Under the pieces are notes generated by a model. That model searched no databases, had not been told where the DNA came from, and was given only the letters and a program-made list of their open reading frames with translations. 64,000 nt of DNA from an uncultured Bacilli bacterium (GTDB lineage: Bacteria; Bacillota_I; Bacilli_A; RF39; UBA660), in NCBI GenBank assembly GCA_934085825.1, contig CAKOHR010000001.1, positions 64,379-128,378 of the forward strand, written 5' to 3'. This document shows positions 3,344 to 33,611 of this stretch, in pieces. The stretch's first letter is position 1, and every line of letters begins with the position of its first letter. Both the position numbers and the translations under genes were made by a program.

Positions 3344-3530
3344 ATAAAAATTTTTTAGTACGAGTAAATTATATCAAAAAGTTATTCATAATGCAAGATG
3401 TTTCGAAAATAATTGTTAATTTCTTGTTATCGTTCAGTCAAGAGATAGATAAATTTCTTATATAAATTTTGAAGATAAAATGTTTTTTTTATTAATGATG
3501 TTAATAAAGATAAGAAAACTATTTCATAAA

Positions 3531-3559
3531 TTGCAATGAAGTAGTTTTTTTGTTATAAT
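3531..3559 (+). promoter_or_regulatory. sigma-A-like promoter upstream of ftsY
   Basis: TTGCAA (3531-3536), a 17-nt spacer, then TATAAT (3554-3559). A GGAGGG RBS precedes the ATG at 3580. Confidence 0.4.
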
Positions 3560-3579
3560 TTAAAAGGAGGGTAATTATT

Positions 3580-4566: not shown

Positions 4567-4862
4567 TGGAAGATTTTGTATATTATGATCAATTATTTAA
4601 TATTTATGGTTCACTTTTAAATGAATCTAATAGAAAATATTATAGACTTTATTATGAAGAAAATTTTACTTTACAGGAGATTGCTGATTTAAAAAATGTA
4701 TCTAAAAGTTATGTGGGTAATATTATAAGTAAAACAAGCAAAAAGTTAAAAGAATACGAAAATGAATTGCATATTTTGAGAGATAGAAATGAGCTTATAA
4801 AAATTTTATCAATTAATGATATTCTTGAAATAAAAAGTATGATTAAAAATATGTTAAATTGA
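4563..4862 (+). CDS. ylxM: YlxM/UPF0122 family putative DNA-binding protein
   Basis: 99 aa, start overlaps the ftsY stop. Has the conserved YlxM-like helix-turn-helix (LTLQEIADLKNVSKSYV). Confidence 0.7.
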   Translation: MMEDFVYYDQLFNIYGSLLNESNRKYYRLYYEENFTLQEIADLKNVSKSYVGNIISKTSKKLKEYENELHILRDRNELIKILSINDILEIKSMIKNMLN

Positions 4863-5350
4863 TGGAAATAAAAAAATAAACGTGCTAAAATGAATATTAA
4901 TAGAGGTAGGGATTTATGAGAAGGTATATTTTAGTTAGTTTATTTTTTTTATTGCTTTATTGGTCAAGTTAATGCAAAAAGTTGATGCTGTTCACATCAT
5001 AATGGGGTTGTTGGTTGCAATCAATATGGTAGAACGGTTTGTAATGATGGTACTATAAGCCCTACGTGTATTTGTGAGCCTGAGATAATTGGTACTATAA
5101 AAGGCTGCATGGATATTTCTGCTAAAAATTACGATCAAAATGCAAATGTTTCAGAGGTTTGTTTATATCAATCTGTGAAAGAAAATGCTACTAATTCCCA
5201 GAAAAATGTAAATGAGGATAGTAATGATAATTTTATGTTTGGTTTTTAAACTTTAAGAGCAATTGTTGTAGGCGCAACATTGAAGAAAAAAAGACGTCGT
5301 ATATAGTTCTAATTATAATTATTTATCATAATAATTAATAAGGTGTTTAT

Positions 5351-6508
5351 ATGAAAAAAAATTTATTAATTATTGTGAGTTTTTTATTTTTAGTTGTTGG
5401 AGTTAAAGCAGAGGAAGATTTTGCTCCGAATGCAAAAAGTGCAATATTAATTGATAACTTATCAGGAAAAGTACTTTATGAAAAAAATGCTGATGAAAAA
5501 TTAGCTCCGGCATCAATGACTAAACTTGGAAGCCTGCTTTTAATAATGGAAGCTTTAGATGATGGTAGTTTAAAATTAGATGATAAAGTAACAATAAGTG
5601 AAGAAGCCGCCAATATGGGCGGTAGTCAAGTTTTTTTACAAGCTGGTGAAAGTTATACCGTTCATGATCTACTTAAAGGAATTGCTATTGCTAGTGGAAA
5701 CGATGCTGTTGTGGCTATGTCGGAAAAATTGGCTGGATCTCAATCAGCTTTTGTAGAAAAACTAAATAAAAGGCTTAAAGAAATTGGAGCTGTAAATACT
5801 AATTTTGTTAATGTTCATGGGCTTGATGCTGAAGGACATTATTCTACAGCTAGAGACATGTCTATTATTGCAAGAGAACTTTTAAAATATCCTAAAATTT
5901 TGGAATATACAAGTATCTATGAGGAATATTTGAAAAAAAATGATGGCTCAAGAATTTGGCTTGTTAATACAAATAAACTAGTGAGATTTTATGAAGGAGT
6001 AGATGGCCTTAAAACTGGTTTTACTAAAACTGCTGGATATTGTTTAACTGCTACTGCTAAAAAAGATAATTTTAGATTAGTTTCGGTTGTAATGGGTGAG
6101 GATACAACAGAGAATAGAAGTAGTGATACAGTTAAATTATTAAATTATGCTTTTAATACATATAAAATTAATATTATTAAAACTAAGGGCGAAGTTTTAG
6201 GAAAAGTTAGAGTAGAACGTGGTAAAAAAGATTTTGCTAATATTGTTTTGGCTGAGGATGCAACAGAACTTTTAAAAAACACCGATGTTGAAGTAAATTA
6301 TAAATTTAATCTATTGGTTGATAAAATAAAAGCTCCAGTTAAACCCGGTGATGTAGTTGGTTATGCTGAAATAGTTGATGATTCGGGAAATATTGTTGAT
6401 GAAGTAAATGTTACTGTAGAAAGTGAGATAAAAAAAGCTAATATTTTAGATTATATGTTAAAGAATTTGCAAGTATTGGGGGCAGGTAAAACATTATTAA
6501 AACAATAA
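5351..6508 (+). CDS. D-alanyl-D-alanine carboxypeptidase (serine-type, PBP5/DacA-like)
   Basis: Signal peptide, SMTK (SxxK) active-site motif, SGN motif, and a C-terminal PBP5-type domain. Confidence 0.85.
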   Translation: MKKNLLIIVSFLFLVVGVKAEEDFAPNAKSAILIDNLSGKVLYEKNADEKLAPASMTKLGSLLLIMEALDDGSLKLDDKVTISEEAANMGGSQVFLQAGESYTVHDLLKGIAIASGNDAVVAMSEKLAGSQSAFVEKLNKRLKEIGAVNTNFVNVHGLDAEGHYSTARDMSIIARELLKYPKILEYTSIYEEYLKKNDGSRIWLVNTNKLVRFYEGVDGLKTGFTKTAGYCLTATAKKDNFRLVSVVMGEDTTENRSSDTVKLLNYAFNTYKINIIKTKGEVLGKVRVERGKKDFANIVLAEDATELLKNTDVEVNYKFNLLVDKIKAPVKPGDVVGYAEIVDDSGNIVDEVNVTVESEIKKANILDYMLKNLQVLGAGKTLLKQ

Positions 6509-6533
6509 AAAAAAGCCTTTTGGGCTTTTTATA
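6509..6533. terminator. bidirectional terminator between convergent genes
   Basis: aaagcc tttt ggcttt hairpin flanked by A-run and T-run. Confidence 0.5.
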
Positions 6534-7947
6534 TTGTTTTTGATGTTAATTTTCTAGTTGAATCAATATCTATAAGTACGTTATCAGAATCTTTTTTTTC
6601 ACCTTCAATAATTTTATCTAATTTGGTGTTGCAGAAATATCTTAAACGATAAATTTCTTTTTCTTCATCTGTTTCAAATAATAAATTTAAAAGTAATTCA
6701 AGACGTTTTTCTTCATCTGGTTCGTTTCCTATCTTTTTAGCTAAAATGGTTTTAAAGTTATATTCATCATAAGTGTTTAGATCATGAGATATTTGTACTA
6801 GCTTGGCAAAAAGATTTATATTTGCTAATATTTCTTTAAATGATACTTCACCATTAGCCATTCTAAATTCTATAGTGTTCTTTTCTGGTTTATTAATGTT
6901 TTGAAGATTTAATCCACGATATCTTGATGAACTTATTTTTTTTATAGTTTCAATGTAATTTGAATAGGTACGACATTTTTCTAAATCACCATTTTCGATT
7001 GAATTTATAAGTTCTTTTTTTATTTTGCCAGCAAATTTGGCAAATTTTAATCTTTTTTGAGAATAAGCTTTGTCTGTTATATTATAGATAATATCTTCAC
7101 AATTAGCAAAAAGATATAATAATGTTGCATAATCTTCCTTGGTTTTAAGGTAATCTGCTCCGATATGAACGTGACAACCGCATGATTGATCTGCTGAAAA
7201 ATTCATCTTTTCTAGAGTTGCACATACGGCTTCAAGTGTAGTAAGGTCCTCTTTTGTGTAGTGGAGAATTGGTGATATAACTTCAAATCCTTTTTTTACA
7301 GAATTATCTTTTGTTATTTCAAATGTATCAAATAAACTAGGAATATTTATAAAACGTTTAATATCTGGATTAATGACTTCTAGTTCAATCCCGATAGTTA
7401 TTTCTGGAGATACCGTACTTGTAACCATATCATCGTTTTCATTTGTATAAAGATTTTTGTTGGCTTTATTGTTGGTGTTTAATAAATATTTTACATCTTT
7501 ATCTTGTATTTTGCTAATTAAATATTGCTCAATTTCACTTTCACTTCCGTAGCAATGGTATACATTTTTTATTAATTCCATTCTGTCTTCAAGCGTTTCA
7601 GCTTCTTCAAATGTTTTTAGTATTTGTTCTTTGTCTTGTGCTGCCACTATAAACATACTTTTTAAAGGAAAGTATGTAGGTTTCATTTTATCTAAAAATT
7701 CTAAAGCCACAACACGTAATGCTTCAGGTGTAAATAGTTTTTTTATTGTTTGTAAATCAAAACGATAATACATTAATGTGTATTTATTAAAAATTTTTTC
7801 TCTTAATTCAGAGTCTTTTATTGATAAAACAATTATTAAAAATTGATCTTGCTTAATTGTAGTATTCTTTTTTAAATATTCAATTAATGCTTCATCATCC
7901 TTACTTTCAAAGTATTTTTTTAATTGCATAATTAACATTTCATTCAT
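6529..7947 (-). CDS. hypothetical protein with a C-terminal glutamine-synthetase-like amidoligase-type domain (tentative)
   Basis: 472 aa. The C-terminal half carries IGIELEV, KKGFEVISPIL, GCHVHIG and TIEFRMANG, which I recognise as the strand motifs of the GCS2/Amidoligase_2-type carboxylate-amine ligase fold. The N-terminal ~180 aa are unique. Confidence 0.5.
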   Translation of the reverse strand: MNEMLIMQLKKYFESKDDEALIEYLKKNTTIKQDQFLIIVLSIKDSELREKIFNKYTLMYYRFDLQTIKKLFTPEALRVVALEFLDKMKPTYFPLKSMFIVAAQDKEQILKTFEEAETLEDRMELIKNVYHCYGSESEIEQYLISKIQDKDVKYLLNTNNKANKNLYTNENDDMVTSTVSPEITIGIELEVINPDIKRFINIPSLFDTFEITKDNSVKKGFEVISPILHYTKEDLTTLEAVCATLEKMNFSADQSCGCHVHIGADYLKTKEDYATLLYLFANCEDIIYNITDKAYSQKRLKFAKFAGKIKKELINSIENGDLEKCRTYSNYIETIKKISSSRYRGLNLQNINKPEKNTIEFRMANGEVSFKEILANINLFAKLVQISHDLNTYDEYNFKTILAKKIGNEPDEEKRLELLLNLLFETDEEKEIYRLRYFCNTKLDKIIEGEKKDSDNVLIDIDSTRKLTSKTI

Positions 7948-8029
7948 AACACAACCCCCAATTTAATATAATGTTATCACATTTTGTGGCTTTTGTCAAA
8001 TTGGCTATGCTATGAAAAAAATTGAAGAC

Positions 8030-8548
8030 TTAATATTTAAAGTCTTCAATTTCAGTTTTAGATTTATGTGGTTCATCAAATAACAAACCATCGTAATTTC
8101 TTTGTCTTAAAGCTTCATATAGCATAATTGCTACAGTGTTTGATAAATTAAGTGCTCTAACATTATCTGTCATTGGCATTCTCATGCATTTATCAATGTG
8201 GGGTTTTAATATCCCTTTAGGAATACCTGTTGATTCTTTTCCAAATACAAAAAATATATTTTCTTTAGTATTGCTATAATCAAAACTAGAGTGGGGCTTA
8301 TGACCATATCTTGTCAAAAAATAAAATGTGCCATCTGCGTTTTTGTCTAAAAAATCTTCCCAATTTTCATAAACATACCATTTTAATTTATCTATGTAAT
8401 TGACTCCACTTCTTTTAAGTGATGCATCATCTACTTTAAAACCTAATGGTTTAATTAAATGTAAAGTAGTATTTGTTGCTACACATGTTCTCATTATATT
8501 TCCAGTGTTTTGTGGGATTTCTGGTTCAAATAAAACAACATTTAACAT
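8030..8548 (-). CDS. trmL: tRNA (cytidine/uridine-2'-O)-methyltransferase TrmL (SpoU family)
   Basis: LFEPEIPQNTGNIMRTCVATNTTLHLIKPLGF matches the SPOUT-class TrmL/CspR N-terminus. About 170 aa. Confidence 0.85.
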   Translation of the reverse strand: MLNVVLFEPEIPQNTGNIMRTCVATNTTLHLIKPLGFKVDDASLKRSGVNYIDKLKWYVYENWEDFLDKNADGTFYFLTRYGHKPHSSFDYSNTKENIFFVFGKESTGIPKGILKPHIDKCMRMPMTDNVRALNLSNTVAIMLYEALRQRNYDGLLFDEPHKSKTEIEDFKY

Positions 8549-8560
8549 AATTTCACTTCC

Positions 8561-8584
8561 TTAAAAAAGGCCTTTATTGGCCTT
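8561..8584 (-). terminator. terminator after the 8574..9167 gene
   Basis: aaggcc tttatt ggcctt hairpin with a T-run on the minus strand. Confidence 0.45.
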
Positions 8585-9167
8585 GGTATTCATAAATATC
8601 TAATAGTTTTTGAAAATCACTTGCATTTATAATATTATTGTCGTCTCTATGTACTAAACTTTTAATTTTACCATCTTTGTAATAAAGTATTGTAGGAACT
8701 TTTGTAATTTTGTCTGTTTCAAAAGCATTATTTAGTCTAGTTAAGTAATTATCTTCATTTAAAATATCCTTAATATTTATGTAGTAGAATGAATCATTTA
8801 ATTTATACTTGTCAATAATTGTTTTTAATCCTGTTTCAAGATTATATGTGTCTTTGTTTCCTGTGTAAGTAATTAAAATAAAGTATTCAGTTGGTGATTC
8901 TTTAAGTATTTGACTTACTTCATCTAAATTTTTGATTTCTAGGCTAACAGTTCCTGTACTTACTAGATAGCTTGTATTATATTTTTCAGATGTATTCACT
9001 TTATTAACTCTGTAAATATAAAATATAACAAGTATTAGTAAAAGTAATATTCCAATAATTATTAGAAAATTTTTCGAAGTAAATATATTTTTAGTTTCCT
9101 TTACTTCTTTAATTTCTGTTTCAGTTTTTTTTACATTTTTTGTTTTTGTATTTGCCATATACACCAT
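8574..9167 (-). CDS. hypothetical membrane-anchored protein (single TM; thioredoxin-like C-terminal region possible)
   Basis: 197 aa. One strong TM helix, and codon usage consistent with its neighbours. Confidence 0.5.
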   Translation of the reverse strand: MVYMANTKTKNVKKTETEIKEVKETKNIFTSKNFLIIIGILLLLILVIFYIYRVNKVNTSEKYNTSYLVSTGTVSLEIKNLDEVSQILKESPTEYFILITYTGNKDTYNLETGLKTIIDKYKLNDSFYYINIKDILNEDNYLTRLNNAFETDKITKVPTILYYKDGKIKSLVHRDDNNIINASDFQKLLDIYEYQGQ

Positions 9168-9217
9168 ACCTTTCTTTTATAATATAACATATTATTTAAA
9201 TTTTTTAAATGCTTTTC

Positions 9218-11479
9218 TTATTCTTCGACATTATTTTTTTCTAATTTTACTAAAACTTCACGTGGTTTTGATCCATTTTGTGGTCCAACTATGCCTCTTG
9301 ATTCTAAAAGATCCATCATTCTGGCGGCTCTATTGTAACCAAATCTGAATCTTCTTTGAATTAATGATGCACTAATTTTTCCTGTTTGTATAGCAAATTC
9401 TACGACATCATTGTAAGCATCGTCATCTTCTCCACCAATAGCGGTGTTTCCAGATCCACTTGAAGTATTTTGACTAACATTTTCAAATGTTTGATCATAT
9501 TTTGCTGTTCCTTGATTTTTACAAAAATCAATTAATTTTTTTATTTCGTCATCGTTTATAAAACATCCTTGAATTCTTGTCGGAGCAGATTCTCCCATTG
9601 GAAAATATAACATATCACCTTTACCAAGTAATCTTTCAGCACCTCTTTGGTCAAGAATTGTACGAGAGTCAATTTGTGAAGCAACAGCAAAAGCAATACG
9701 TGATGGAATATTGTTTTTAATTAAACCAGTGATGACATCAGTTGATGGTCTTTGAGTTGCTACTATAAGATGGATACCAGCTGCACGTGCAAGTTGAGTA
9801 ATACGAGTAATTGAATCTTCAACTTCTTTAGATGCAACAAGCATTAAGTCTGCAAGTTCGTCTATAATTACTACAATATATGGCATTTTTGTTTGAGGGT
9901 TTTCTGGATTCTTTTTATTATATTTTTCAATCATTTCGTTATATCCGGTTATATTTTTTACTTCTTTATCACTAAATATTTGAAATCTGTTATCCATTTC
10001 CGTAACAACTCTTTGAAGTGTTAGACTTGCTTTTTTAGGATCACTTACAACAGGACAAAGTAGGTGAGGGATACCATTATAATTTGTAAGTTCGACTTTT
10101 TTAGGGTCAACTAATACTAATTTTACTTCAGTTGGTTTATAACGCATTAATATTGATGCGATAATACTATTAATACAAACAGATTTACCTGAACCAGTAG
10201 AACCTGCAACTAGTAAGTGAGGCATCTTTGTTAAATCAAATATTTTTGGTGTTCCCATAATATCTTTACCTAAAGCAGCACATATTTTAGCATCACTTTT
10301 TAGGTTTTGCGGACTTTCAAGAACTTCTCTTAGAGTAACACTAGAAATTGATGGATTTGGAATTTCTATACCTATTGTACTTTTACCCGGAATAGGGGCT
10401 TGGATAATTACGTCTTTTGCAGCTAGTGCTAAAGCTATTTCTTTGTCTATACTTAGTACTTTATTTACCTTTGTTGCTGGTGGAACAGTAAGTTCATATT
10501 CTGTAACTGCTGGTCCAATGTGTATTTCCACAACTTTGGCAGCAATACCAAAATCTCTTAAAACTCTTTCAAGTATTTCTTTGTTACTTTGGGTAAACGT
10601 TGTGCTATTAACTTTTTTAGATTTTGGTGGATCAAATACTTCACCAAATTTTGGTAATCTATAACTTTCATCACCTTCATTTGTTACTTCTTCTTGTTTA
10701 GGTAAAGATTTTTCAAGAGATTCTTGATGGTTTGGTTTGTTTTTTAATTCTTCCATACTTGTGATTATAATTTTTTCTTTTTCAAGTGGTTTAATTTCAG
10801 GCATTTCTTTTATTTCATTACTATCGCTGATAGGAATTGGTTCTTCATGATTTTTTTCAGGCATTTCTTTTTTCTTTCTTTTAAATAAACTGAATACTTT
10901 AGCAAAAACATTTGATAAATTAAAGTTAAATGTCAGTATCGATGCAAATATACCAAGTATTACTAATATCACTATTGTTCCTGTTTTTCCAAATAAACCA
11001 TATAAAGCAGCACTAAATATAGCTCCGATGAAACCACCACCAATAACTACAGTTGTAACTCCAGAGGTATTTAAAGCATTTGATGCATTTATTGAAGATA
11101 TTCTTTCCATAAAATTATTATATGTTTCTAAAATGATTTCTTTAGGACTTTGTGTTATATTTAAAAATTCAAAATGACTTGCCACTAATAATATAATGAA
11201 AAAAATGTATAGGCCTATTAATTTTTGATCACTAAATTTTGGCATTTTTCTTTTATAAAGCATGTAAATACCTAATGCAATTAAGGATATTAAGATTATT
11301 ATCCACCAAGTTCCTGCTAAAAATATGGAAAACATTTTTATTAAAGAACCGATAAGTCCAAAACCAAAGCCAATTATTCCTAATAAGATAAGGATAAGAC
11401 CTGTAAGTTCTATACTATAATTGCTGTTATTATTTTCTTTTGTTTTTTTCTTCTTTGCCATTTTTATCACCTTAATCAT
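9218..11479 (-). CDS. ftsK: DNA translocase FtsK/SpoIIIE
   Basis: N-terminal polytopic membrane domain, a P/E-rich linker, a motor domain with Walker A GSTGSGKS and Walker B VVIIDELADL, and a C-terminal gamma (winged helix) domain. Confidence 0.9.
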   Translation of the reverse strand: MIKVIKMAKKKKTKENNNSNYSIELTGLILILLGIIGFGFGLIGSLIKMFSIFLAGTWWIIILISLIALGIYMLYKRKMPKFSDQKLIGLYIFFIILLVASHFEFLNITQSPKEIILETYNNFMERISSINASNALNTSGVTTVVIGGGFIGAIFSAALYGLFGKTGTIVILVILGIFASILTFNFNLSNVFAKVFSLFKRKKKEMPEKNHEEPIPISDSNEIKEMPEIKPLEKEKIIITSMEELKNKPNHQESLEKSLPKQEEVTNEGDESYRLPKFGEVFDPPKSKKVNSTTFTQSNKEILERVLRDFGIAAKVVEIHIGPAVTEYELTVPPATKVNKVLSIDKEIALALAAKDVIIQAPIPGKSTIGIEIPNPSISSVTLREVLESPQNLKSDAKICAALGKDIMGTPKIFDLTKMPHLLVAGSTGSGKSVCINSIIASILMRYKPTEVKLVLVDPKKVELTNYNGIPHLLCPVVSDPKKASLTLQRVVTEMDNRFQIFSDKEVKNITGYNEMIEKYNKKNPENPQTKMPYIVVIIDELADLMLVASKEVEDSITRITQLARAAGIHLIVATQRPSTDVITGLIKNNIPSRIAFAVASQIDSRTILDQRGAERLLGKGDMLYFPMGESAPTRIQGCFINDDEIKKLIDFCKNQGTAKYDQTFENVSQNTSSGSGNTAIGGEDDDAYNDVVEFAIQTGKISASLIQRRFRFGYNRAARMMDLLESRGIVGPQNGSKPREVLVKLEKNNVEE

Positions 11480-11533
11480 TATACCCTAATTTACAAAAAT
11501 ATTCAAATTATTTTTTGAAAAATTAGCCATAAT

Positions 11534-11557
11534 AAAAAGCCATGATGGCCTTTAATA
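11534..11557 (-). terminator. weak terminator after cotJC
   Basis: gcca tga tggc hairpin with a flanking T-run on the minus strand. Confidence 0.35.
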
Positions 11558-12118
11558 TTATTTATATCCTTTTTCTTTGTAGTAGTTGTATAGTTCTTCA
11601 AATCGGTTGAAATGAATAATTTCTCTTTGACGTAAAAATAGAAGTGGTTCAATAACTTTGGGGTCTGTTGCTAAATCAATTAAATGTTCATAAGCAACTC
11701 TAGCTTTTTGTTCTGCAGCCATGTCTTCAACTAAATCAGCAAGGGGATTACCAGTTACTGCAAATGTTGATGCATCAAAAGCTACACCATCAGCACTCAT
11801 TGGGAATACACCTTTACCATGTTCAGTGTAGAAACTTTCAAGCCCAGCATCCTTAATTTCTTCAATTGTTGCGTTTTCAATAAGTTGTGAAACAATTGTG
11901 GCAACCATTTCTAAATGTCCAAGTTCTTCTGTGGCTATATCGTTTAAAAGGGCTCTTCCTTTTTCATCTGGCATTGTAAATTTTTGATGAAAATATCTAA
12001 GTGCTGCACCTAGTTCACCAGCATAACCTCCGACTTGGGTTATGATAAGTTTAGCCATTTTTAAATCTTTTTTTGTTACATTAATTGGATAAGATAAATG
12101 TTTTACATATTTAAACAT
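11558..12118 (-). CDS. cotJC: spore coat protein CotJC (manganese catalase family)
   Basis: YPINV..LAKLIITQVGGYAGELGAALRYFHQKFTMP and EELGHLEMV match the CotJC/Mn-catalase ferritin-like motifs. Adjacent to a CotJB homolog. Confidence 0.85.
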   Translation of the reverse strand: MFKYVKHLSYPINVTKKDLKMAKLIITQVGGYAGELGAALRYFHQKFTMPDEKGRALLNDIATEELGHLEMVATIVSQLIENATIEEIKDAGLESFYTEHGKGVFPMSADGVAFDASTFAVTGNPLADLVEDMAAEQKARVAYEHLIDLATDPKVIEPLLFLRQREIIHFNRFEELYNYYKEKGYK

Positions 12119-12545
12119 ATTTTGTACCTCCTACATTTTCCCATGGCCAAGGTTTATTAATCCAATCAAATTTACTTAAAGATTCATTATCCATGACTTC
12201 AAGTGGACCATAACATTTTACGTATTCCATTTCTTTTTCACATGATTTTTCAGTTAATTCTTTAAACCTTTTTAACATTTCGGTATTTTCTGGGTGCAAG
12301 TCTAAGTAAATATTTAAATCATTAATTGCAAATGATAGTGCCATAATTTCTAAAAGTAATTCTTCTTGTTTACTATTAGCTATGAGTTTTGCTGCTTTAT
12401 ATTCTTTATATGGAATATATTCCTCTTGAAACATGTTTCCTTTAGAAAATCCATCAGGCACAGTAGTAAGCATATTTGCTTTATCAAATTTTACTTCTTT
12501 TGGTATTGCAAATCCAAAGAAACCTAAATTATCATCAAATAACAT
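12111..12545 (-). CDS. cotJB: spore coat protein CotJB, with a ~55-aa N-terminal extension (possible CotJA-like fusion)
   Basis: The C-terminal ~90 aa carry CotJB hallmarks (LNIYLDLHPEN, CYGPL, PWPWEN). The start overlaps the cotJC stop. Confidence 0.7.
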   Translation of the reverse strand: MLFDDNLGFFGFAIPKEVKFDKANMLTTVPDGFSKGNMFQEEYIPYKEYKAAKLIANSKQEELLLEIMALSFAINDLNIYLDLHPENTEMLKRFKELTEKSCEKEMEYVKCYGPLEVMDNESLSKFDWINKPWPWENVGGTKYV

Positions 12546-12632
12546 TTTTTTCCTCCCTAATTTATAGTATGTTTTACTTATAATGTGTATTGGGTTAATT
12601 ACTTAGGGTATACTAAATTAAATTATAAGTAA

Positions 12633-12661
12633 TTGACTTTAATAAGTTTTTATTTTAAAAT
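12633..12661 (+). promoter_or_regulatory. strong sigma-A-like promoter of Gly-rich paralog 1
   Basis: TTGACT, a 17-nt spacer, then TAAAAT, ending ~25 nt upstream of the ATG at 12687. Confidence 0.45.
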
Positions 12662-12686
12662 TAGTAATAGGATAGGTTAGAGGTAT

Positions 12687-14648
12687 ATGGACAGAATACG
12701 TGAAAAAATAAAGAAAATCCTTAATAAGGACGTAACAAGTCTTTTAAATAAACATAAAATTCTACTGGTAAGCATAGCTATAGTAGTTATTTTGTCGTGC
12801 GTTGGATTAATAGTTTCGTACGCATTTTATCAAGTTGTAGATACGACCCCAGTGATCTTGAGTACGACACCACAGATAGCAGATTTAGAAGTCAGGATTA
12901 TGGCAGAAGAAAGAGATACTAGTGGTAATGGGCTTAATAGTTATGCTATTTATCCATATATACCAAAAGCTGGATATAAATATGATGCTGGTATGAGTTA
13001 TTGTACAAATGGAAGTACTATTAATTACGATGCAAGTACTTATGATGCCAGTATAAATGCTACCGGGCATGATGTTTGTTATTTATATTTTAAATCAACA
13101 GCAAGCTTAGATATAACTTTAGAAGTTTATGCGGAAAATGTAGATAGTGATGGGGTTGGTAACGGAGAATATACAAAATTAGAAACTACATCTTTGCCAT
13201 CAATTGGATATGAACTTAATAGTAGTAAATCTTATTGTGTGTATGCAAATGATGAAAGTACTCATGTAACTGATACTACAGTTTCTTATAATTCTGATAA
13301 ACAAAAATTTACAGTAAACGCTAGAAAAAAAGGTGCAATTTGTAGGGCTTATATGGATGCAATGGATGTAGATATTGCTCTTAAAATATTTGTTCAAGCT
13401 AAGAAGGGCTCATCAACATATTATGAAGTTGATAAAATACCTGTAACTAGTTTCTATGCACTGAATACTGACAAGTCGGCGTGTACAGGTACATCGACAA
13501 TGTCAATTAAAAATCAAAAAGTTGTGATAGCAGCAACAAATAGAACAAATTGTGTTGCTTATTTAGATGTTTCTTCAGGCCCCTTTATAGAAAGCATGAG
13601 AGTTACAAATTCAGGAACAAGTGCAACAATTACACTTGGAAATAGTAATTTAGGAACAACGCCATCAACATATTATTATTCAAATGATGGTGGAAAAAAC
13701 TATGCAACAAGTACAAGTAACACATATACATTTACAAGTCAAGCAAATCCAAGTTATGCATATAAAGCATATAGTGCAGATGCATCAGGAAATACATCAA
13801 GAGTATTCGAAACATCAACTTATGGATATTATGGATTAGTAGATTATTCAAACCAAATACAGACTAAGACAATTACAGAATCTGGTTATTACAAATTAGA
13901 AACTTGGGGAGCTCAAGGCGGTGGAGATACTAAGTATGTTGGTGGATATGGTGGATATTCGGTTGGATATATTTATTTAAATCCAAATTCAACATTATAT
14001 CTTGCTATAGGTGGAGCTGGTGGTTATTGTACTGGTTCAAGTTGTACTTCAGTAGGAGGGTATAATGGCGGAGGAAACTGTAAAGCATATACAGATTCAA
14101 CATCAACATGTGGAGCTGGTGGTGGAGCTACTCATATAGCGACAATTCCAGGAGTGCTGGCATCATTAGAAAATAATAAAGACAGTATTTTAATAGTTTC
14201 TGGCGCAGGTGGCGGAGGAAATTACTGTAATGACTGGAATTATGCTTCTGGTGGCATGGGCGGCGGATTTACTGGTGGATCTGCAATAGATTTAGGGGCT
14301 CCAGATTTTTCTGCTAATGGTGGTTTAGATACCAAAGGCGGTACACAAGATGGAGGTTGGAAGTTTGGTTTAGGTCGTGGAAGTGAAGGAGCTAACTTTG
14401 TTGGAGGCGGCGGTGGTTATTATGGCGGTAATTCAACATTTATAAATGGCTCTGGTGGTGGTTCTGGTTATATTGGCAATCCATTATTAACAAATAAATC
14501 GATGTATTGTTATAATTGTACAACTAGTAATTTAGAGACAACAAAGACAATTTCTACGACATGCCATAGTTCAAATGCTACTGAAAATTGTGCAAAAGAG
14601 GGTAATGGTTATGCTATTATTACCTATATTGGGAGTGATTTAAGTTAA
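12687..14648 (+). CDS. membrane-anchored glycine-rich surface/secreted protein, tandem paralog 1 of 2
   Basis: 653 aa. A cytoplasmic N-terminus, then a TM anchor ending in an SYAFYQV motif. Next comes a Cys-containing N-domain. The C-terminal half is a Gly-rich region (WGAQGGG, GGYGGY, GGGATHI, IVSGAGGGG, GGGGGYYGG, SGGGSGYIGNPLL), ending in the conserved tail CHSSNATENCAKEGNGYAIITYIG. Confidence 0.8.
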   Translation: MDRIREKIKKILNKDVTSLLNKHKILLVSIAIVVILSCVGLIVSYAFYQVVDTTPVILSTTPQIADLEVRIMAEERDTSGNGLNSYAIYPYIPKAGYKYDAGMSYCTNGSTINYDASTYDASINATGHDVCYLYFKSTASLDITLEVYAENVDSDGVGNGEYTKLETTSLPSIGYELNSSKSYCVYANDESTHVTDTTVSYNSDKQKFTVNARKKGAICRAYMDAMDVDIALKIFVQAKKGSSTYYEVDKIPVTSFYALNTDKSACTGTSTMSIKNQKVVIAATNRTNCVAYLDVSSGPFIESMRVTNSGTSATITLGNSNLGTTPSTYYYSNDGGKNYATSTSNTYTFTSQANPSYAYKAYSADASGNTSRVFETSTYGYYGLVDYSNQIQTKTITESGYYKLETWGAQGGGDTKYVGGYGGYSVGYIYLNPNSTLYLAIGGAGGYCTGSSCTSVGGYNGGGNCKAYTDSTSTCGAGGGATHIATIPGVLASLENNKDSILIVSGAGGGGNYCNDWNYASGGMGGGFTGGSAIDLGAPDFSANGGLDTKGGTQDGGWKFGLGRGSEGANFVGGGGGYYGGNSTFINGSGGGSGYIGNPLLTNKSMYCYNCTTSNLETTKTISTTCHSSNATENCAKEGNGYAIITYIGSDLS

Positions 14649-14649
14649 A

Positions 14650-14679
14650 AAATACATGAAGAAAATCATGTATTTTTTG
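14650..14679 (+). terminator. rho-independent terminator after paralog 1
   Basis: atacatga agaaaa tcatgtat hairpin plus TTTTTT. Confidence 0.5.
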
Positions 14680-14725
14680 GATTTTTCAATTGTGAAAAGT
14701 TATCCTATAAATGGAGTACGTTATA

Positions 14726-14754
14726 TTGACAAATGTAAGTTTTTATTTTAAAAT
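14726..14754 (+). promoter_or_regulatory. sigma-A-like promoter of Gly-rich paralog 2
   Basis: TTGACA, a 17-nt spacer, then TAAAAT. The leader (14733-14779) is identical to the paralog-1 leader. Confidence 0.45.
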
Positions 14755-14779
14755 TAGTAATAGGATAGGTTAGAGGTAT

Positions 14780-16726
14780 ATGGACAGAATACGTGAAAAA
14801 ATAAAGAAAATCCTTAATAAGGACGTAACAAGTCTTTTAAATAAACATAAAATTCTACTGGTAAGCATAGCTATAGTAGTTATTTTGTCGTGCGTTGGAT
14901 TAATAGTTTCGTACGCATTTTATCAAGTTGTAGATACGACCCCAGTGATCTTGAGTACGACACCACAGATAGCAGATTTAGAAGTCAGGATTATGGCAGA
15001 AGAAAGAGATACTAGTGGTAATGGGCTTAATAGTTATGCTATTTATCCATATATACCAAAAGCTGGATATAAATATGATGCTGGTATGAGTTATTGTACA
15101 AATGGAAGTACTATTAATTACGATGCAAGTACTTATGATGCCAGTATAAATGCTACCGGGCATGATGTTTGTTATTTATATTTTAAATCAACAGCAAGCT
15201 TAGATATAACTTTAGAAGTTTATGCGGAAAATGTAGATAGTGATGGGGTTGGTAACGGAGAATATACAAAATTAGAAACTACATCTTTGCCATCAATTGG
15301 ATATGAACTTAATAGTAGTAAATCTTATTGTGTGTATGCAAATGATGAAAGTACTCATGTAACTGATACTACAGTTTCTTATAATTCTGATAAACAAAAA
15401 TTTACAGTAAACGCTAGAAAAAAAGGTGCAATTTGTAGGGCTTATATGGATGCAATGGATGTAGATATTGCTCTTAAAATATTTGTTCAAGCTAAGAAGG
15501 GCTCATCAACATATTATGAAGTTGATAAAATACCTGTAACTAGTTTCTATGCACTGAATACTGACAAGTCGGCGTGTACAGGTACATCGACAATGTCAAT
15601 TAAAAATCAAAAAGTTGTGATAGCAGCAACAAATAGAACAAATTGTGTTGCTTATTTAGATGTTTCTTCAGGCCCCTTTATAGAAAGCATGAGAGTTACA
15701 AATTCAGGAACAAGTTCAACAATAACACTGGGAAATAGTAATTTAGGAACAACACCATCAACATATTATTATTCAAATGATGGTGGAAAAAACTATGTAA
15801 CAAGTACAAGTAACACATATACATTTACAAGTCAAGTAAATCCAAGTTACGCATATAAAGCATATAGCGCAGATGCATCAGGAAATACATCAAGAGTATT
15901 TGAAACATCAACATATGGATACTATGGATTAGTAGATTATTCAAATCAAATACAAACAAAAACAATTACTGAACCTGGATATTATAAATTAGAAACTTGG
16001 GGAGCTCAAGGTGGAGGATATGGTGAGTATATAGGTGGATATGGAGCATATGCAATAGGATATATCAGACTTGATGCTGGTCCAGTGTATATTAATGTTG
16101 GTGGAGCTGGTAAGAGTGGTGTACAAAGTTCAGAAGGAATTGTTACTTCTGGAGGGTACAATGGCGGTGGAGCCAACACATCAAACAGTTATGGTATTGG
16201 AGGTACTGGTGGTGGAGCAACTCATATATCATTACGTTCTGGGTTATTGCAAACATTAAGTGATTATTTAAATGAGTTGTTAATAGTCTCAGCCGGAGGT
16301 GGCGGAGGTTCACAAGAAATAGGCTATATAGGTTATTGTTATGGTGGATCTGGCGGCGGTATAACAGGAACAGTGGGCTCGTTAAATCCTAACAGAGGTG
16401 ATGGTGGTCCCGGACTTGCAAGTGCACCTACACAAAGCAGTGGTTATGCATTTGGAGCTGGTCAACCAGGCGTTGGTTGGCAAGGCGCAGGTGGTGGCGG
16501 TTATTATGGTGGCATAGCAGGATGCGGTGGATCTGGTGGTTCATCCTACATTGGCAATCCTCTTTTAGTTAATAAATCAATGTATTGTTATAATTGTACA
16601 ACCAGTAGTGCTGAAGCCACTAAAACTGTTTCAACAACATGTCATAGCTCAAATGCTACTGAAAATTGTGCAAAAGAAGGTAATGGTTATGCTATTATTA
16701 CCTATATTGGCGAAAGTTTGGATTAG
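14780..16726 (+). CDS. membrane-anchored glycine-rich surface/secreted protein, tandem paralog 2 of 2
   Basis: 648 aa. The first ~310 aa are essentially identical to paralog 1, and divergence grows after that. The Gly-rich half is strongly diverged, but the last ~50 aa are conserved. Confidence 0.8.
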   Translation: MDRIREKIKKILNKDVTSLLNKHKILLVSIAIVVILSCVGLIVSYAFYQVVDTTPVILSTTPQIADLEVRIMAEERDTSGNGLNSYAIYPYIPKAGYKYDAGMSYCTNGSTINYDASTYDASINATGHDVCYLYFKSTASLDITLEVYAENVDSDGVGNGEYTKLETTSLPSIGYELNSSKSYCVYANDESTHVTDTTVSYNSDKQKFTVNARKKGAICRAYMDAMDVDIALKIFVQAKKGSSTYYEVDKIPVTSFYALNTDKSACTGTSTMSIKNQKVVIAATNRTNCVAYLDVSSGPFIESMRVTNSGTSSTITLGNSNLGTTPSTYYYSNDGGKNYVTSTSNTYTFTSQVNPSYAYKAYSADASGNTSRVFETSTYGYYGLVDYSNQIQTKTITEPGYYKLETWGAQGGGYGEYIGGYGAYAIGYIRLDAGPVYINVGGAGKSGVQSSEGIVTSGGYNGGGANTSNSYGIGGTGGGATHISLRSGLLQTLSDYLNELLIVSAGGGGGSQEIGYIGYCYGGSGGGITGTVGSLNPNRGDGGPGLASAPTQSSGYAFGAGQPGVGWQGAGGGGYYGGIAGCGGSGGSSYIGNPLLVNKSMYCYNCTTSSAEATKTVSTTCHSSNATENCAKEGNGYAIITYIGESLD

Positions 16727-16728
16727 TT

Positions 16729-16995
16729 ATGAAATGTAACAGATGTGGTAGTCCGCTTCCAAATGACGGAATTGTTTGCAAATTTTGTGGAGCTTTAATG
16801 GATCAAAAACAAATAGCTTATCAAAATAAAATGAAAGATAAAAATAGTGAAAGAATTGTCCTTTTAAGTGAAAAATATGGACATAAAAACAATATAGAAT
16901 ATCGTGAAGTTAAAGAAAATAAACTTCTGGGATTAATAATTATTTCTATTGTACTTGTATTTTTAATAATTTTGACCATATTAATAAATATATGA
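16729..16995 (+). CDS. zinc-ribbon domain membrane protein
   Basis: CNRCGSPLPNDGIVCKFCG (CxxC-x11-CxxC) followed by a C-terminal TM helix. The start lies 3 nt after the paralog-2 stop. Confidence 0.55.
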   Translation: MKCNRCGSPLPNDGIVCKFCGALMDQKQIAYQNKMKDKNSERIVLLSEKYGHKNNIEYREVKENKLLGLIIISIVLVFLIILTILINI

Positions 16996-17007: not shown

Positions 17008-17520
17008 ATGTTATTACTTTGCTTAAAGATATTTTTTGCTAGAATTATTGATGTAACTTTAGGTACAGTGAGAACTGTACTAGTTGTAAGAGGCCGAAGA
17101 TTTACTCCGGCCTTTATTGCATTTTTTGAAGTACTTATTTGGTTTGTAATCGCAAGAGAAGCATTGACTACAGATGTAACATCTATTTTAATACCAATTT
17201 GTTATGCTGCTGGTTATGCAACTGGAACTTATATTGGCGGTTTTATTTCTAATAATTTTGTTGATGGATTAATTGGGGTTCAAGTAACTACTAAAACAGG
17301 TAAGTTACAAAAAATGCTTAATGATATTAGAAAAGAAGGATTTGGTGTTTCTGTAATTGAACTTAAAAATCCTCAGGATAATGAAGATAAAAGTATGCTT
17401 TTAATTCAATTAAACAAGTCAAAGTTAAAGGTTTTAACACACATTGTTAGAAGCCATGATCCAGATGCATTCGTGGTTATAAACGAAACTAAATATGCAC
17501 AAAACGGAGTTATTAAGTAA
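17008..17520 (+). CDS. UPF0316/DUF2179 family membrane protein
   Basis: The N-terminus (IIDVTLGTVRTVLVVRGRRFTPAFIAFFEVLIWFV) is typical of UPF0316 proteins of Firmicutes, followed by a C-terminal soluble domain. Confidence 0.7.
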   Translation: MLLLCLKIFFARIIDVTLGTVRTVLVVRGRRFTPAFIAFFEVLIWFVIAREALTTDVTSILIPICYAAGYATGTYIGGFISNNFVDGLIGVQVTTKTGKLQKMLNDIRKEGFGVSVIELKNPQDNEDKSMLLIQLNKSKLKVLTHIVRSHDPDAFVVINETKYAQNGVIK

Positions 17521-17639: not shown

Positions 17640-18782
17640 ATGAATACTTATAGAGCATATAAATTAAGAATTTATCCTACTGATTTACAAAGAGAATTAA
17701 TTGAAAAAACTTTTGGGTGTACTAGATATATTTATAATAATTTTCTTGCAGAAAGAAAAAATAAATATGAAGAAAGTAAAATAAAAGTGCATGTTTATGA
17801 ACAGCTAAAAGAACTAACAGATTTAAAAAGGGAAAAAGAATGGTTAAGAGAAATAGATTCATGTGCTTTGCAAGCATCAGTATATAATTTAGATGATGCA
17901 TTTCAAGGATTTTTTCATGGTAAGGGCTATCCAAAATTTATGGCAAAAGGTGTACATGAAAGTTTTAGAACTAATAATACATTAAGTACTTATAAAAATA
18001 AAAAGTATGAAACTATCAGAGTAGATTTTAATAAAAGAATAATAACTTTACCAAAATTAAAAGAAGTAAAGTTTCGAGGATATAGAACAACTAAGGAAAT
18101 CGTAGGAAAAATAAAATCAGCAACAATAAGCAAGGATGCTAACAAATATTTTGTAAGCATCTTAGTTGAAGTGCCATTTTTTAAATATTCAATAAATCCA
18201 ACATCAATCGTGGGATTAGATTTAGGAATTAAAGATTTTATAGTAACATCAAATGGAGAAAAATTAAAAAATGAAGTAAAGATCAATGAGAAGAGATTAA
18301 AAGGATTACAAAGATGGTTAGCTAGATGCAAACCAGGAAGTAAAAATAGATATAAAGTAAAATTAAAAATACAAAGATTATATTTAAAAATTAGGAATGC
18401 CAGAAAATATATGATATATAAACTTGCAAATAATATCTTAAAGGAAAATGACATTGTAGCTGTTGAAACACTAGCTGTTAAAAGCATGTATCAAGTCCAT
18501 AAAATAGCTAAACACTTAAAAAACATACCTATCAGTGAATTTATACGAGTCTTAAAATACAAAGCAGATTGGTTAGGTAAAAAAGTTATTAGTATAAATA
18601 AATATTATCCAAGTAGTCAATGTTGTAATAGATGTGATTATAAAAATGAAGAAGTAAAGGATTTAAGTGTAAGAAAATGGATATGTCCAAGATGTGGATT
18701 TGAACATGACAGAGATATAAATGCAAGTGAAAATATAATGTTTGAAGGATTGAAAATATATATGAAAGAGTGTATAATATAA
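17640..18782 (+). CDS. tnpB: TnpB (OrfB) RNA-guided endonuclease / IS605-family transposase accessory protein
   Basis: 380 aa. N-terminus MNTYRAYKLRIYPT...Q.ELIEKTFGCTRYIYN, a RuvC-like core (GLDLGIKDF), and a C-terminal zinc finger CCNRC...CPRCG. Confidence 0.85.
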   Translation: MNTYRAYKLRIYPTDLQRELIEKTFGCTRYIYNNFLAERKNKYEESKIKVHVYEQLKELTDLKREKEWLREIDSCALQASVYNLDDAFQGFFHGKGYPKFMAKGVHESFRTNNTLSTYKNKKYETIRVDFNKRIITLPKLKEVKFRGYRTTKEIVGKIKSATISKDANKYFVSILVEVPFFKYSINPTSIVGLDLGIKDFIVTSNGEKLKNEVKINEKRLKGLQRWLARCKPGSKNRYKVKLKIQRLYLKIRNARKYMIYKLANNILKENDIVAVETLAVKSMYQVHKIAKHLKNIPISEFIRVLKYKADWLGKKVISINKYYPSSQCCNRCDYKNEEVKDLSVRKWICPRCGFEHDRDINASENIMFEGLKIYMKECII

Positions 18783-18970: not shown

Positions 18971-19909
18971 ATGATTAAATTGGCTAAGAAAAAACAAGTA
19001 GTTATTTCAGAGGAAGAATTAGTTCCTACAACTTTAGCTGTTGTAGAAGATAAAAAAAAGGCAAGTGTTTTTGGTGTAGTTTGGATATTTGTGATATTTA
19101 TTATATTTATTGCAGGTGTTATATTCTTACCAGATATTTCTGCTTTTATAAATAGTTATTTAAATCCTGATATAGTGGAACCAAGTACTTCAAATAACAC
19201 TACAAAAAAGGATGATGATACTAAAAATGAAGATAAAGTTAAGGAATATACTATTTCAGATGATTTAGTGATAAGTGAAGAAAGTTTTAAGATTAGTAAT
19301 TTTAGTATAGATAGTAATGGATTGATTAAATTTAAAATTACTAATTTAACTGCAGAAGTCTTAGAGTTAAAAGATTTACATTATTTTCTTAATCTTTATA
19401 ATGATAATAAGAAATTATTGCAAAGAATATATTTACAAGATATAGTTAATCCAAATTCTTCATTAGATGTAACATATGATCTTACTGATACTAATTCTAC
19501 GATAGTTTCATTGGTTAAAATTTCTGAAGCAGAGTATCCTTCTCATGTGGTAACTGTACCAGAAGAAGGTGTAGCGATGCTTACTTGTACAAAGGGTTAT
19601 GAAAAAATAGATTATGTATTAAATAGTAATAAAGCATATGTTACTAATTTAACTTATGAAGTTAATAGTGCTGATCCAAATTTTAATAGTTTGTATAGTA
19701 ATTATCAATTGTTACAAACAACTTATAACAATATTGAGGGAGTATCTTCTAATATAATACTTGAGAATGGATTATTAAGTTTTAGAACAATAATTAATTT
19801 ATCATCTGTAAAAAGTGAATCATTAAATTTAAAAACTTTATATCCATATGGAACTGATGCTAAAATTATTTATTTTGAAATGACAGCTAGTGGTTATACA
19901 TGTAATTAG
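18971..19909 (+). CDS. hypothetical membrane-anchored protein
   Basis: 312 aa. One N-terminal TM helix, then an extracytoplasmic N/S/T-rich domain. Directly upstream of scpA. Confidence 0.5.
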   Translation: MIKLAKKKQVVISEEELVPTTLAVVEDKKKASVFGVVWIFVIFIIFIAGVIFLPDISAFINSYLNPDIVEPSTSNNTTKKDDDTKNEDKVKEYTISDDLVISEESFKISNFSIDSNGLIKFKITNLTAEVLELKDLHYFLNLYNDNKKLLQRIYLQDIVNPNSSLDVTYDLTDTNSTIVSLVKISEAEYPSHVVTVPEEGVAMLTCTKGYEKIDYVLNSNKAYVTNLTYEVNSADPNFNSLYSNYQLLQTTYNNIEGVSSNIILENGLLSFRTIINLSSVKSESLNLKTLYPYGTDAKIIYFEMTASGYTCN

Positions 19910-22174: not shown

Positions 22175-23353
22175 ATGAAAAAACATAAGAAATTATTTGT
22201 AACTTTAGGTGTTATTTTAGCTATAATAATTAGTTTCATATTTGGTTCAAAAAACGATGATGTTTATAAGGAGGATACTAAAACTAAAATTGTAAAAAGA
22301 AAAAATACATTATCAATGATGTTAGAAACTGAAGCTGGTTCAGGAAACTATGAAATGACAACACAAAGTGGGTGGCCAACGGATGGATATACTTTTAATT
22401 CAACATTATCAAAATGTGAAAATGGTGGTGAAGTTTATTGGGACGATTCAAGTAAGAAAGTGTTTATGAGTGCCAATATGTCTGATAAATGCTATGTGTA
22501 TTTTGACAAAACTCCAACTAGTTTAGCAGATTATGTAAAATCATTGTATACAGGAACACAAGGGGAAAATAATATTTATTATCATAATGGTACAATTGTA
22601 AGTAAGAATGAATTTACAGATGATAATAATACAACATATCCTGTTGGTACAATATTGGATGCAAATGATGGAAGTTATAGATATGCTGGAGCAAAGGAGG
22701 CAGTAAATAATTATGTCTGCTTGGACTCAAATGAAAATACATGTTCAAAGGCGAACCTTTTTAGAATAATTGGAGTATTTGATAATAAAGTAAAACTAAT
22801 CAAAGCAAAACCGATAGGTAGTATGGCATGGAACAGCGATGAGCTTAATGGTTGGGAAACGTCAAGCTTATATACATATTTAAATGGTGAATATTTAACA
22901 AGTTTAGGTGATCTAGCGAATAAAATAGATACAGCAACATGGGAAACTATTGGAAATACTGTAGAAAAAATATATGGTGTAGTACCAGCGATAACATATC
23001 AAAATGAAGTAGTAAATTCAGCAATAACAGATTATACATTTAATGCTAAAATTGGTCTAATATATTTATCGGATTTTGGATTTGCGGCAAGTTCAAGTGC
23101 ATGGTCAACAACATTAAATAATTATGAAAATTCGTCAATAACATCAGTAAATTGGATTGGTTCTAAAGAATGGACTATTACCCGTGTAGTAGAGGATGTT
23201 ACTTATGATTCTGCGTTCCTTACAGTTTACGGTGGCTTTGTGGGTGAACCGGTTAATTCTGACAATTATGTAAGTCCTTCTTTCTACCTTTCATCTTCAG
23301 TAACCTATGTATCGGGGAGTGGCAGCGCCAGCGACCCGATGGTAATAAACTGA
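22175..23353 (+). CDS. membrane-anchored secreted protein. Its N-domain is related to the Gly-rich paralogs, and its C-terminal domain is shared with 49832..51778
   Basis: TM anchor. SKCENGG...CYVYFDKTP resembles SYCTNGS...CYLYFKST of 12687/14780. The C-terminal region (NLFRIIGVFDNKVKLIK, KIGLIYLSDFGFAA, EWTITR, SPSFYLSSSVTYVSGSG..DP) is paralogous to the C-terminus of 49832..51778. Confidence 0.7.
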   Translation: MKKHKKLFVTLGVILAIIISFIFGSKNDDVYKEDTKTKIVKRKNTLSMMLETEAGSGNYEMTTQSGWPTDGYTFNSTLSKCENGGEVYWDDSSKKVFMSANMSDKCYVYFDKTPTSLADYVKSLYTGTQGENNIYYHNGTIVSKNEFTDDNNTTYPVGTILDANDGSYRYAGAKEAVNNYVCLDSNENTCSKANLFRIIGVFDNKVKLIKAKPIGSMAWNSDELNGWETSSLYTYLNGEYLTSLGDLANKIDTATWETIGNTVEKIYGVVPAITYQNEVVNSAITDYTFNAKIGLIYLSDFGFAASSSAWSTTLNNYENSSITSVNWIGSKEWTITRVVEDVTYDSAFLTVYGGFVGEPVNSDNYVSPSFYLSSSVTYVSGSGSASDPMVIN

Positions 23354-33516: not shown

Positions 33517-33611
33517 TTTATATACTAAGATAGTTATCCTAATTCTACAAAAACAAATCTTGATATATGGCCGAACATATGGTATAATTCGATTATCATG
33601 GAGGCATTATA

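Follow-up and report, generated by a model that had tools for sequence, protein, structure and literature searches.

The glycine-rich domain (GRD) of ALK and LTK is known from human oncology; its structures were solved only in 2021, and the titles of the solved complexes describe the module as the ligand-binding part of ALK/LTK. A TNF-like plus glycine-rich head is also found on gp24 of myocyanophage Pam3, where it is proposed to recognise a host receptor and resembles ALK (7LIR), the domains superposing on Caenorhabditis elegans ALK with 2.6 Å over 125 C-alpha atoms (PMC9608196). In gp24 a conserved glycine stem carries a hypervariable distal tip, which is the part proposed to bind the receptor (PMC9608196), and polyglycine-II lattices have been described as rigid structural elements (PMC13243192). 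The bacterial relatives are uncharacterised in the searchable literature, in which queries for PF12810, bacterial ALK-like GRDs and polyglycine II returned no study of cellular bacterial GRD proteins. Mosaic surface loci include those of pneumococcal PspA/PspC, the streptococcal M-like proteins and the type IV pilin allele classes. Here, two tandem genes were analysed in a 64,000-nucleotide (nt) stretch of DNA, hereafter the window, from an uncultured Bacilli bacterium (GTDB Bacillota_I; Bacilli_A; RF39; UBA660; GenBank GCA_934085825.1, contig CAKOHR010000001.1, positions 64,379-128,378, forward strand). Each gene encodes an ALK/LTK-type GRD behind a predicted membrane anchor and stalk. With moderate confidence, we read the locus as one of membrane-anchored stalks bearing exchangeable ALK-like binding heads, in which the stalks are homogenised and the heads swapped by recombination.

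A description of the window made earlier from its letters alone (the original prediction) had recognised no characterised protein family in either gene. The results showed that the C-terminal half of each product is an ALK/LTK-type GRD, that is, a member of an established domain family within an uncharacterised architecture from bacteria. PF12810 (ALK_LTK_GRD), a Pfam family with solved ALK/LTK and phage tail-fibre structures, matched paralogs 1 and 2 with 116.2 and 96.3 bits (cutoff 24.5), covered profile positions 5-243 and 4-243 of 243, and was the sole Pfam domain in the protein. A single-sequence phmmer search of the PDB with paralog 1 gave no match, and a profile was needed: one built from 23 diverse bacterial GRDs matched the C. 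elegans ALK homologue SCD-2 (7lir) with an E value of 1.3e-7. An AlphaFold2 model based on 72 homologues had a mean predicted local distance difference test (pLDDT) score of 81.6, with the GRD blocks mostly above 90, and the top 21 PDB matches to it in Foldseek were all ALK/LTK TG/GRD structures (E 7.5e-9 to 3e-6, probability 1.0). The modelled head combines a TNF-like beta-sandwich with an interleaved glycine-rich lattice, as in the ALK/LTK structures, and DSSP placed its Gly-motif stretches in the class 'other' at high pLDDT. Judged from the family match and the overall fold, the likeness to polyglycine-II-type Gly_rich domains that had been suggested earlier appears well founded. Across the 72 homologues, over which all family-wide statistics were taken, glycine accounts for almost every invariant position of the GRD, and the sequence varies between the motifs. 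The domain match over its full length and the confidently predicted fold rule out a collagen-like or low-complexity glycine-rich half. At least 1,379 database proteins match the query, and the 120 listed are all unnamed, with PF12810 as their sole annotation. Species-representative genomes with the same architecture are metagenome-assembled genomes (MAGs) of uncultured gut Bacilli or 'Tenericutes' (Hadza MAGs, UMGS686, CAG:460 and CAG:609), which we take to be the RF39 group.

The N-terminal tail has a net charge of about +5, read from the sequence, and the charge distribution implies an N-in, C-out orientation with an extracytoplasmic head. Both products are thus predicted to be type II membrane-anchored, surface-exposed proteins, and the exposed location assigned to them earlier agrees with this topology. 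In the model a helix spans amino acids (aa) 24-47, followed by a low-confidence linker (aa 43-65). Residues K14, D15, K22, Y45, A46, F47, Y48, Q49 and V50 are invariant or nearly so in the homologues. The cytoplasmic segment KKILNKDVTxxLNKxKI and the helix end YAFYQV are likewise almost invariant, a conservation far beyond the needs of a plain signal anchor, and may represent a processing site or a targeting signal. The outer helix end, SYAFYQV, resembles SipW-type (TasA/camelysin) signals, and similar motifs are present in other GRD proteins and in the open reading frame (ORF) starting at position 49832. Searching NCBIfam with the two paralogs, ORF 22175 and ORF 49832 gave nothing useful, with no match to a SipW-type signal model; the signal peptidase motif SxSMxP was found neither in the window nor in the related loci fetched, and no prepilin motif was found in the window.

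The N-half gave no match in Pfam, NCBIfam or PHROG. It contains three repeats of about 75-90 aa (D1-D3), each with a conserved Cys pair, that were related to one another by hhalign (probability 99% for D1-D2, 95% for D2-D3 and 77% for D1-D3) and were modelled as all-beta with block-mean pLDDT of about 64-91. This Cys-pair repeat is a new stalk domain without a Pfam model. The stalk is lineage-restricted, as just 163 clusters matched it at E <=1e-3 among 1.84 billion representatives, and a GRD was present in seven of the ten clusters scanned from among the best stalk matches. Two further predicted surface proteins of the window, encoded by ORFs 22175-23353 and 49832-51778, have in common a C-terminal domain of some 220 aa (BLASTP E 3e-38), for which Pfam, NCBIfam and PHROG gave no match. 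The former carries one Cys-pair repeat of the kind found in the GRD stalk (E 1e-8), and the N-terminus of the latter is TasA/camelysin-like (...GATYAYFAAQTG). Together with the GRD genes, these ORFs suggest a common toolkit of stalk and head domains in this genome.

The two GRD genes lie head to tail on the plus strand, at the coordinates listed earlier, and, as the original prediction had it, each has its own promoter-like site and the leaders are identical. Ungapped comparison of the genes revealed an exact block of 980 nt at an offset of 2093 nt, running from the promoter spacer to nt 936 of the coding sequence (CDS). All codons up to 312 lie within this block and the first mismatch between the paralogs is at CDS nt 937, in codon 313, which bears out the earlier account of about 930 virtually identical nucleotides followed by gradual divergence. 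Because the repeat begins inside the promoter spacer, the -10 box, leader and ribosome-binding site (RBS) are the same in both paralogs; the -35 hexamers lie outside the exact block and differ by one base. A wider repeat (12643-13972 versus 14736-16065) has 33 mismatches, or 97.5% identity over 1330 nt. In windows of 30 codons, nucleotide identity was 0.96-0.94 over codons 301-390, 0.83 over codons 391-420, 0.45-0.62 over codons 421-600 and 0.76-0.86 over codons 601-653. The glycine-rich cores had been thought to share almost no local sequence, but they can be aligned end to end: aa identity is 30-62% in windows of 30 codons and 46% across codons 401-595, and islands of Gly motifs are conserved.

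The 3' ends had been described as near-identical over their last 150 nt or so, within a mosaic ascribed to recombination or gene conversion. The block that is conserved covers 177 nt at 84% identity, with a synonymous divergence (dS) of 0.79 and a ratio of nonsynonymous to synonymous divergence (dN/dS) of 0.15, and it is also kept in GRD proteins with unrelated N-termini. A dS of this size implies conservation at the protein level and no recent conversion; what keeps the block alike is purifying selection on a structural element found throughout the GRD family, and not its use as a recombination block. A four-cysteine segment (MYCYNC...TTC...NC; 14495-14645 and 16573-16723, aa ~604-653) lies in these C-terminal strands and is conserved in many GRD proteins, where its cysteines may pair in two disulfides or bind a metal. 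Several extra cysteines are present in the type A heads introduced below.

The evolution of the pair was followed on syntenic contigs from other metagenome assemblies: L058, from the same species (99.0% nucleotide identity over window positions 3304-16065), L057 (~85%) and L059 (~78%, with one copy). The paralogs are designated W1 and W2 in the window and a and b on the contigs. Within each of three genomes, codons 1-310 of the two paralogs are 100% identical (dS 0.000), whereas comparison across genomes gave 82% and 69% identity and a dS of about 1.0-1.2. The contrast between a dS of zero within genomes and about 1 between them indicates concerted evolution by gene conversion, and the mosaic origin by recombination or conversion that had been proposed is upheld by these N-halves, identical within three genomes and 18-31% different between them, and by the cassette swap described next. 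Identity decays in a graded way over codons 311-420 (dS 0.05-0.27), which looks like heterogeneous ends of conversion tracts. L058a and L058b are one residue apart in the N-half.

The heads follow a different history. Type A heads (W1, L058a, L057b and L059) are 85-99% identical across three stalk lineages, and W1 also has a counterpart, P0001, a 99% identical protein from a Hadza gut metagenome. In type B, W2 and L057a are 78% identical, with P0009 (94%) and P0023 (90%) as further members, and a third type, C, is carried by L058b; identity between types is 46-62%. In the window the type A gene comes first and the type B gene second, in L057 the order is reversed, and close relatives of types B and C sit on stalks that are just 74-85% identical. 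Between the window and L058, genomes of one species, the alignment collapses at about 16040-16570 and returns at 96% identity from 16490/16571, so that a GRD-core cassette has been swapped between conspecific genomes. Across the family, identities of the N-half and of the GRD are uncorrelated (Spearman 0.08, 2556 pairs), clustering at >=70% identity gave 26 head clusters among the 72 homologues, and one 98%-identical stalk bears four head types.

Diversifying selection on the exposed domain, as the original prediction had inferred, was not borne out by dN/dS along the gene. Within GRD types dN/dS was 0.08-0.14 at dS 0.4-1.1 across lineages, which shows purifying selection within head types; between types it was 0.33-0.63 with dS saturated. 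The discrete, shared types and the constraint within them imply that the heads are old conserved modules reshuffled by recombination rather than a hypervariable region or products of positive selection on point mutations.

The locus itself is fixed. In all 21 loci compared (the window and loci from the L001-L019 and L057-L059 series), the GRD gene or genes lie downstream of ftsK and cotJC/cotJB and are followed by the Zn-ribbon and DUF5698/DUF2179 genes. One copy is present in 17 loci and two in the other four (window, L058, L057 and L019). The neighbourhood is a housekeeping one (ftsK, cotJ, scpA/B), and no phage genes were found around the locus in the 21 syntenic loci. Within the 64 kb of the window, which has a GC content of 27% and is thus AT-rich, no further or silent GRD copies were found beyond the two genes, and a search around the promoters for inverted repeats and for phase-variation, invertible or slippage elements found none.

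On the mechanism we favour, tandem paralogs at a conserved chromosomal locus of low-GC uncultured gut Bacilli each encode a protein of predicted type II (N-in, C-out) topology, composed of a basic tail, a signal-anchor helix, four beta-sandwich stalk domains (three Cys-pair and one FN3-like) and a C-terminal ALK/LTK-type head. Gene conversion keeps the 5' 980 nt, comprising the -10 box, leader, anchor and most of the stalk, identical between the paralogs. The heads, discrete, ancient and conserved types (at least 26 clusters in 72 homologues) uncoupled from stalk lineage, are traded by homologous recombination through the conserved stalk on one side and the C-terminal block or the downstream genes on the other. 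A two-copy genome would then display two head types on identical stalks. Each head would act as a binding or adhesion module held off the membrane, and its type diversity may be maintained by frequency-dependent pressure from phage, host immunoglobulin A (IgA) or alternative ligands. An exchangeable-specificity surface binding head is, on this analysis, the most likely function.

This assignment draws on the contexts in which the module occurs. Some IMG/VR contigs encode GRDs that lack a signal peptide and are joined to a minor-tail module (phrog_538, in L076) or to a tail-protein module (phrog_7064, in L060). Structural matches in BFVD numbered 96, among them a virion structural protein and a putative short tail fibre. 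The PHROG matches of the query are solely to GRD families of unassigned function, and GRD heads are found in PHROGs 1589, 7388 and 5811. In other gut Bacilli MAGs, the GRD stands behind type IV prepilin-like N-termini (GFTLVELL...; L020, L030, L050, L055 and L023), and also behind TasA-like signals (...YAxF...). Tandem arrays of short secreted GRD paralogs, three to six in number (up to six in L027; also L022, L034 and L048), were seen there as well, as were giant proteins that reach 3,997 aa and carry between three and six GRD repeats (L042, L047 and L039). Among the contigs with low-GC, Bacilli-like GRD genes, some had been placed in MAGs of Phocaeicola vulgatus, Muribaculaceae or Saccharibacteria (L018, L033, L034, L035, L043, L044 and L049), probably through mis-binning or as mobile or phage DNA. 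A module that recurs at the far end of display scaffolds, and on the tails of phages, is most readily explained as a recognition or adhesion head, and the glycine-invariant scaffold with variable segments between the motifs matches the scaffold-plus-specificity logic of Pam3 gp24 and S16 gp38.

Several observations weigh against this reading of exchangeable binding heads. The paralogs of L019 have N-halves that are just 55% identical, implying that homogenisation is lineage-specific, and a recent duplication followed by cassette import could leave the same within-genome pattern as conversion. Consensus collapse during assembly could slightly inflate the 100% identity of the exact block. Cleavage at YAFYQV, should this be a SipW-type site, would leave the protein released or polymerised instead of membrane-bound. 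A tblastn search of 50,697 deposited phage genomes with the type A head gave no match, so that the phage links come from PHROG profiles, IMG/VR and structure searches alone; since the phage proteins lack the stalk, the transfer of function from phage receptor-binding proteins is one of analogy. A more far-reaching version of the same reading, which we regard as speculative and on balance unlikely, is a strain-level recognition system in which the heads pick a partner such as a host glycan or another bacterium, are perhaps cleaved at YAFYQV into fibres, belong to a pool traded with phages and were the source of the metazoan ALK/LTK domain. In this version the cells would be auxotrophic, reduced-genome gut Bacilli dependent on a partner bacterium.

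Among other explanations, there is a small chance that the proteins are structural envelope components or spacers (S-layer-like or wall scaffold) without a specific ligand, their diversity serving escape from phage or antibody. A core, conserved locus that is single in every related genome and has promoter-like sites near the consensus would fit such a role, as would the rigidity of polyglycine-II lattices (PMC13243192). However, binding has been assigned to the module in every characterised context (ALK/LTK and Pam3 gp24), the pilin-like N-termini in other MAGs fit a tip adhesin, and the strong purifying selection within types argues for a type-specific function.

Programmed antigenic variation of hypervariable glycine-rich loops, driven by positive selection or by cassettes converted out of silent copies (compare pilE/pilS and vlsE), is rather improbable. 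It would account for the mosaic of conserved ends and divergent middle, for the cassette difference between strains and for GRDs in which nearly all invariant positions are glycines and the segments between motifs vary. It is at odds with a dN/dS below 1 everywhere, including the values within types, and with head types that are discrete and common to several lineages. Moreover, just two copies are present in 64 kb, both with a promoter-like site and an RBS, no silent cassettes were seen there, and no invertible or slippage elements were found.

A domesticated tail-fibre module or prophage remnant, acting as a decoy, in superinfection exclusion or as a tailocin-like element, seems still harder to sustain, in spite of the GRD heads in phage tail proteins and in the three PHROGs named above. 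The synteny with housekeeping genes in 21 genomes, the lack of phage genes there, and the membrane anchor and non-phage stalk all argue against it; the PHROG matches are limited to GRD families, and the only nearby mobile element, a TnpB-type insertion, is downstream.

A polymorphic toxin for contact-dependent competition, with the small downstream membrane protein as its immunity factor, is very improbable. Conserved N-terminal and variable C-terminal parts in tandem, with a small ORF 2 nt after paralog 2, are what such a system would show, but all the C-termini have the same GRD fold, no toxin-like domain is present and paralog 1 has no small ORF downstream. The candidate immunity gene, the Zn-ribbon ORF, was rejected, as it does not co-vary with head type and is identical beside different heads. 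Finally, although the related sequences were assembled from metagenomes, and short reads cope poorly with repeats of about 1 kb, mis-assembly or strain chimerism is scarcely credible, since three independent assemblies (window, L058 and L057) have the same tandem layout, the junctions are unique (intergenic terminator and promoter, distinct 3' ends), the one-residue difference between L058a and L058b shows that copies were not simply collapsed, and L019 has two clearly different copies.

Table 1. Features of the tandem GRD locus (window coordinates)
Feature	Position	Strand	Basis or remarks
Promoter-like site, paralog 1	12633..12661	+	TTGACT-17-TAAAAT; 10/12 matches in consensus scan
Exact direct repeat, copy 1	12643..13622	+	980 nt, 100% identical to 14736-15715; dS 0.000 over codons 1-310
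Paralog 1 CDS	12687..14648	+	ORF, 653 aa; stalk and type A GRD; PF12810 at aa 397-648, E 3.1e-33
Basic tail on the cytoplasmic side (aa 1-23), then signal-anchor helix (aa 24-47)	12687..12827	+	Predicted from sequence, AlphaFold2 model and 72 homologues
Cys-pair beta-sandwich repeats D1-D3 (aa 62-298)	12870..13580	+	hhalign; all-beta model
FN3-like domain D4 (aa 297-386)	13575..13844	+	
Type A GRD head of paralog 1 (modelled TNF-like sandwich, putative polyglycine lattice)	13842..14645	+	
Terminator-like hairpin(s) and U-run after paralog 1	14645..14700	+	RNA folding
Promoter-like site, paralog 2	14726..14754	+	TTGACA-17-TAAAAT; 11/12 matches in consensus scan
Paralog 2 CDS	14780..16726	+	ORF, 648 aa; identical stalk and type B GRD; PF12810 at aa 396-643, E 3.6e-27
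GRD-core cassette differing between window and L058	16040..16570	+	Codons 421-597 of paralog 2
Conserved 3' block	16534..16710	+	177 nt, 84% nt identity to 14456-14632; C-terminal strands, CxxC...C...C segment of GRD
Zn-ribbon membrane protein, C-terminally anchored	16729..16995	+	88 aa; weak Zn-ribbon Pfam matches
DUF5698/DUF2179 membrane protein	17008..17520	+	Pfam; syntenic in 20/21 loci (L015 contig ends before the gene)

The features of the locus are listed in Table 1. A hairpin at 14645-14680 folds with -17.3 kcal/mol (z -5.5), and none of 200 shuffled sequences was as stable; a scan for consensus terminators found none, missing this hairpin because its stem is AT-rich. The Zn-ribbon gene had been expected 3 nt behind paralog 2; the adjacency holds, but the ORF start was found 2 nt after the stop codon, and its product has a weak NCBIfam match to the N-terminus of TcaA (E 1.4e-4). 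In all 21 loci this gene lies 0-100 nt after the last GRD gene, with which it is apparently co-transcribed. Its product is 100% identical in the window and L058 despite the different adjacent GRD types, and so tracks lineage rather than head type. The conserved adjacency invites the speculation that it acts as a partner, perhaps of the conserved cytoplasmic tail.

Directly upstream of the locus lies a cotJB-cotJC (Mn-catalase-like) pair at 11558-12545, the orientation of which is inverted relative to the window in some lineages (L002, L003, L012, L013, L016, L019 and L059). Downstream, an intact TnpB/IS605-OrfB-type ORF (HTH_OrfB_IS605, OrfB_IS605 and Cas12f1-like TNB; 17640-18782) is inserted between the DUF2179 gene and the ORF at 18971-19909. 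This ORF is also present in L058 and is absent at that position in L057, L001, L004 and L005. A second TnpB copy, at about 33514-34251, is ~78% identical and degraded by stops and frameshifts.

With one fixed locus, an identical stalk and discrete, exchangeable heads, the system amounts to a natural experiment, and the type A, B and C heads on one scaffold offer a route to the specificity determinants. It connects the part of ALK that binds ligand with the receptor-binding proteins of phages and with a polymorphic surface locus of gut bacteria, and suggests that the combination of TNF-like domain and polyglycine-II lattice is a general recognition device common to animals, phages and bacteria. 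For an abundant uncultured gut lineage, the genes are candidate determinants of colonisation or of interaction with phage, and the head types are usable as strain-typing markers.

Compared with the TG supradomain of ALK/LTK (PF12810; 7LRZ, 7NX1 and 7LIR), the products described here lack kinase, EGF-like, MAM and LDLa domains. Their predicted topology is reversed, with the anchor N-terminal, the GRD C-terminal and a cytoplasmic part of 23 aa, and the host is bacterial. No ALKAL-like gene is evident here, and the heads are polymorphic in discrete types. With gp24 of Pam3 (7YPX) and gp33 of Bxb1, the 'tail wing brush' (9D93), the window proteins have the TNF-like and GRD head in common; they differ from these in their housekeeping locus, in the membrane anchor and four-domain stalk and in having no baseplate-docking helix. 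No gene resembling a fibre chaperone was recognised next to the GRD genes.

The gp38 adhesin of S16 and T-even phages (6F45) is, as generally described, alike in its rigid polyglycine-II scaffold, its variable specificity segments and their recombinational exchange. No sequence or fold match between gp38 and the GRD heads was recovered; gp38 has no TNF-like sandwich and varies in loops, whereas the variation here is in whole discrete head types. From PspA/PspC, the M-like proteins and the pilin classes, the present locus differs in that the folds are unrelated, the hosts are uncultured commensals and the variable unit is a folded GRD under purifying selection that is strong within types. What it has in common with these mosaic surface loci is a conserved anchor or stalk, discrete and divergent distal families, breakpoints at domain borders and tandem paralogs that are homogenised.

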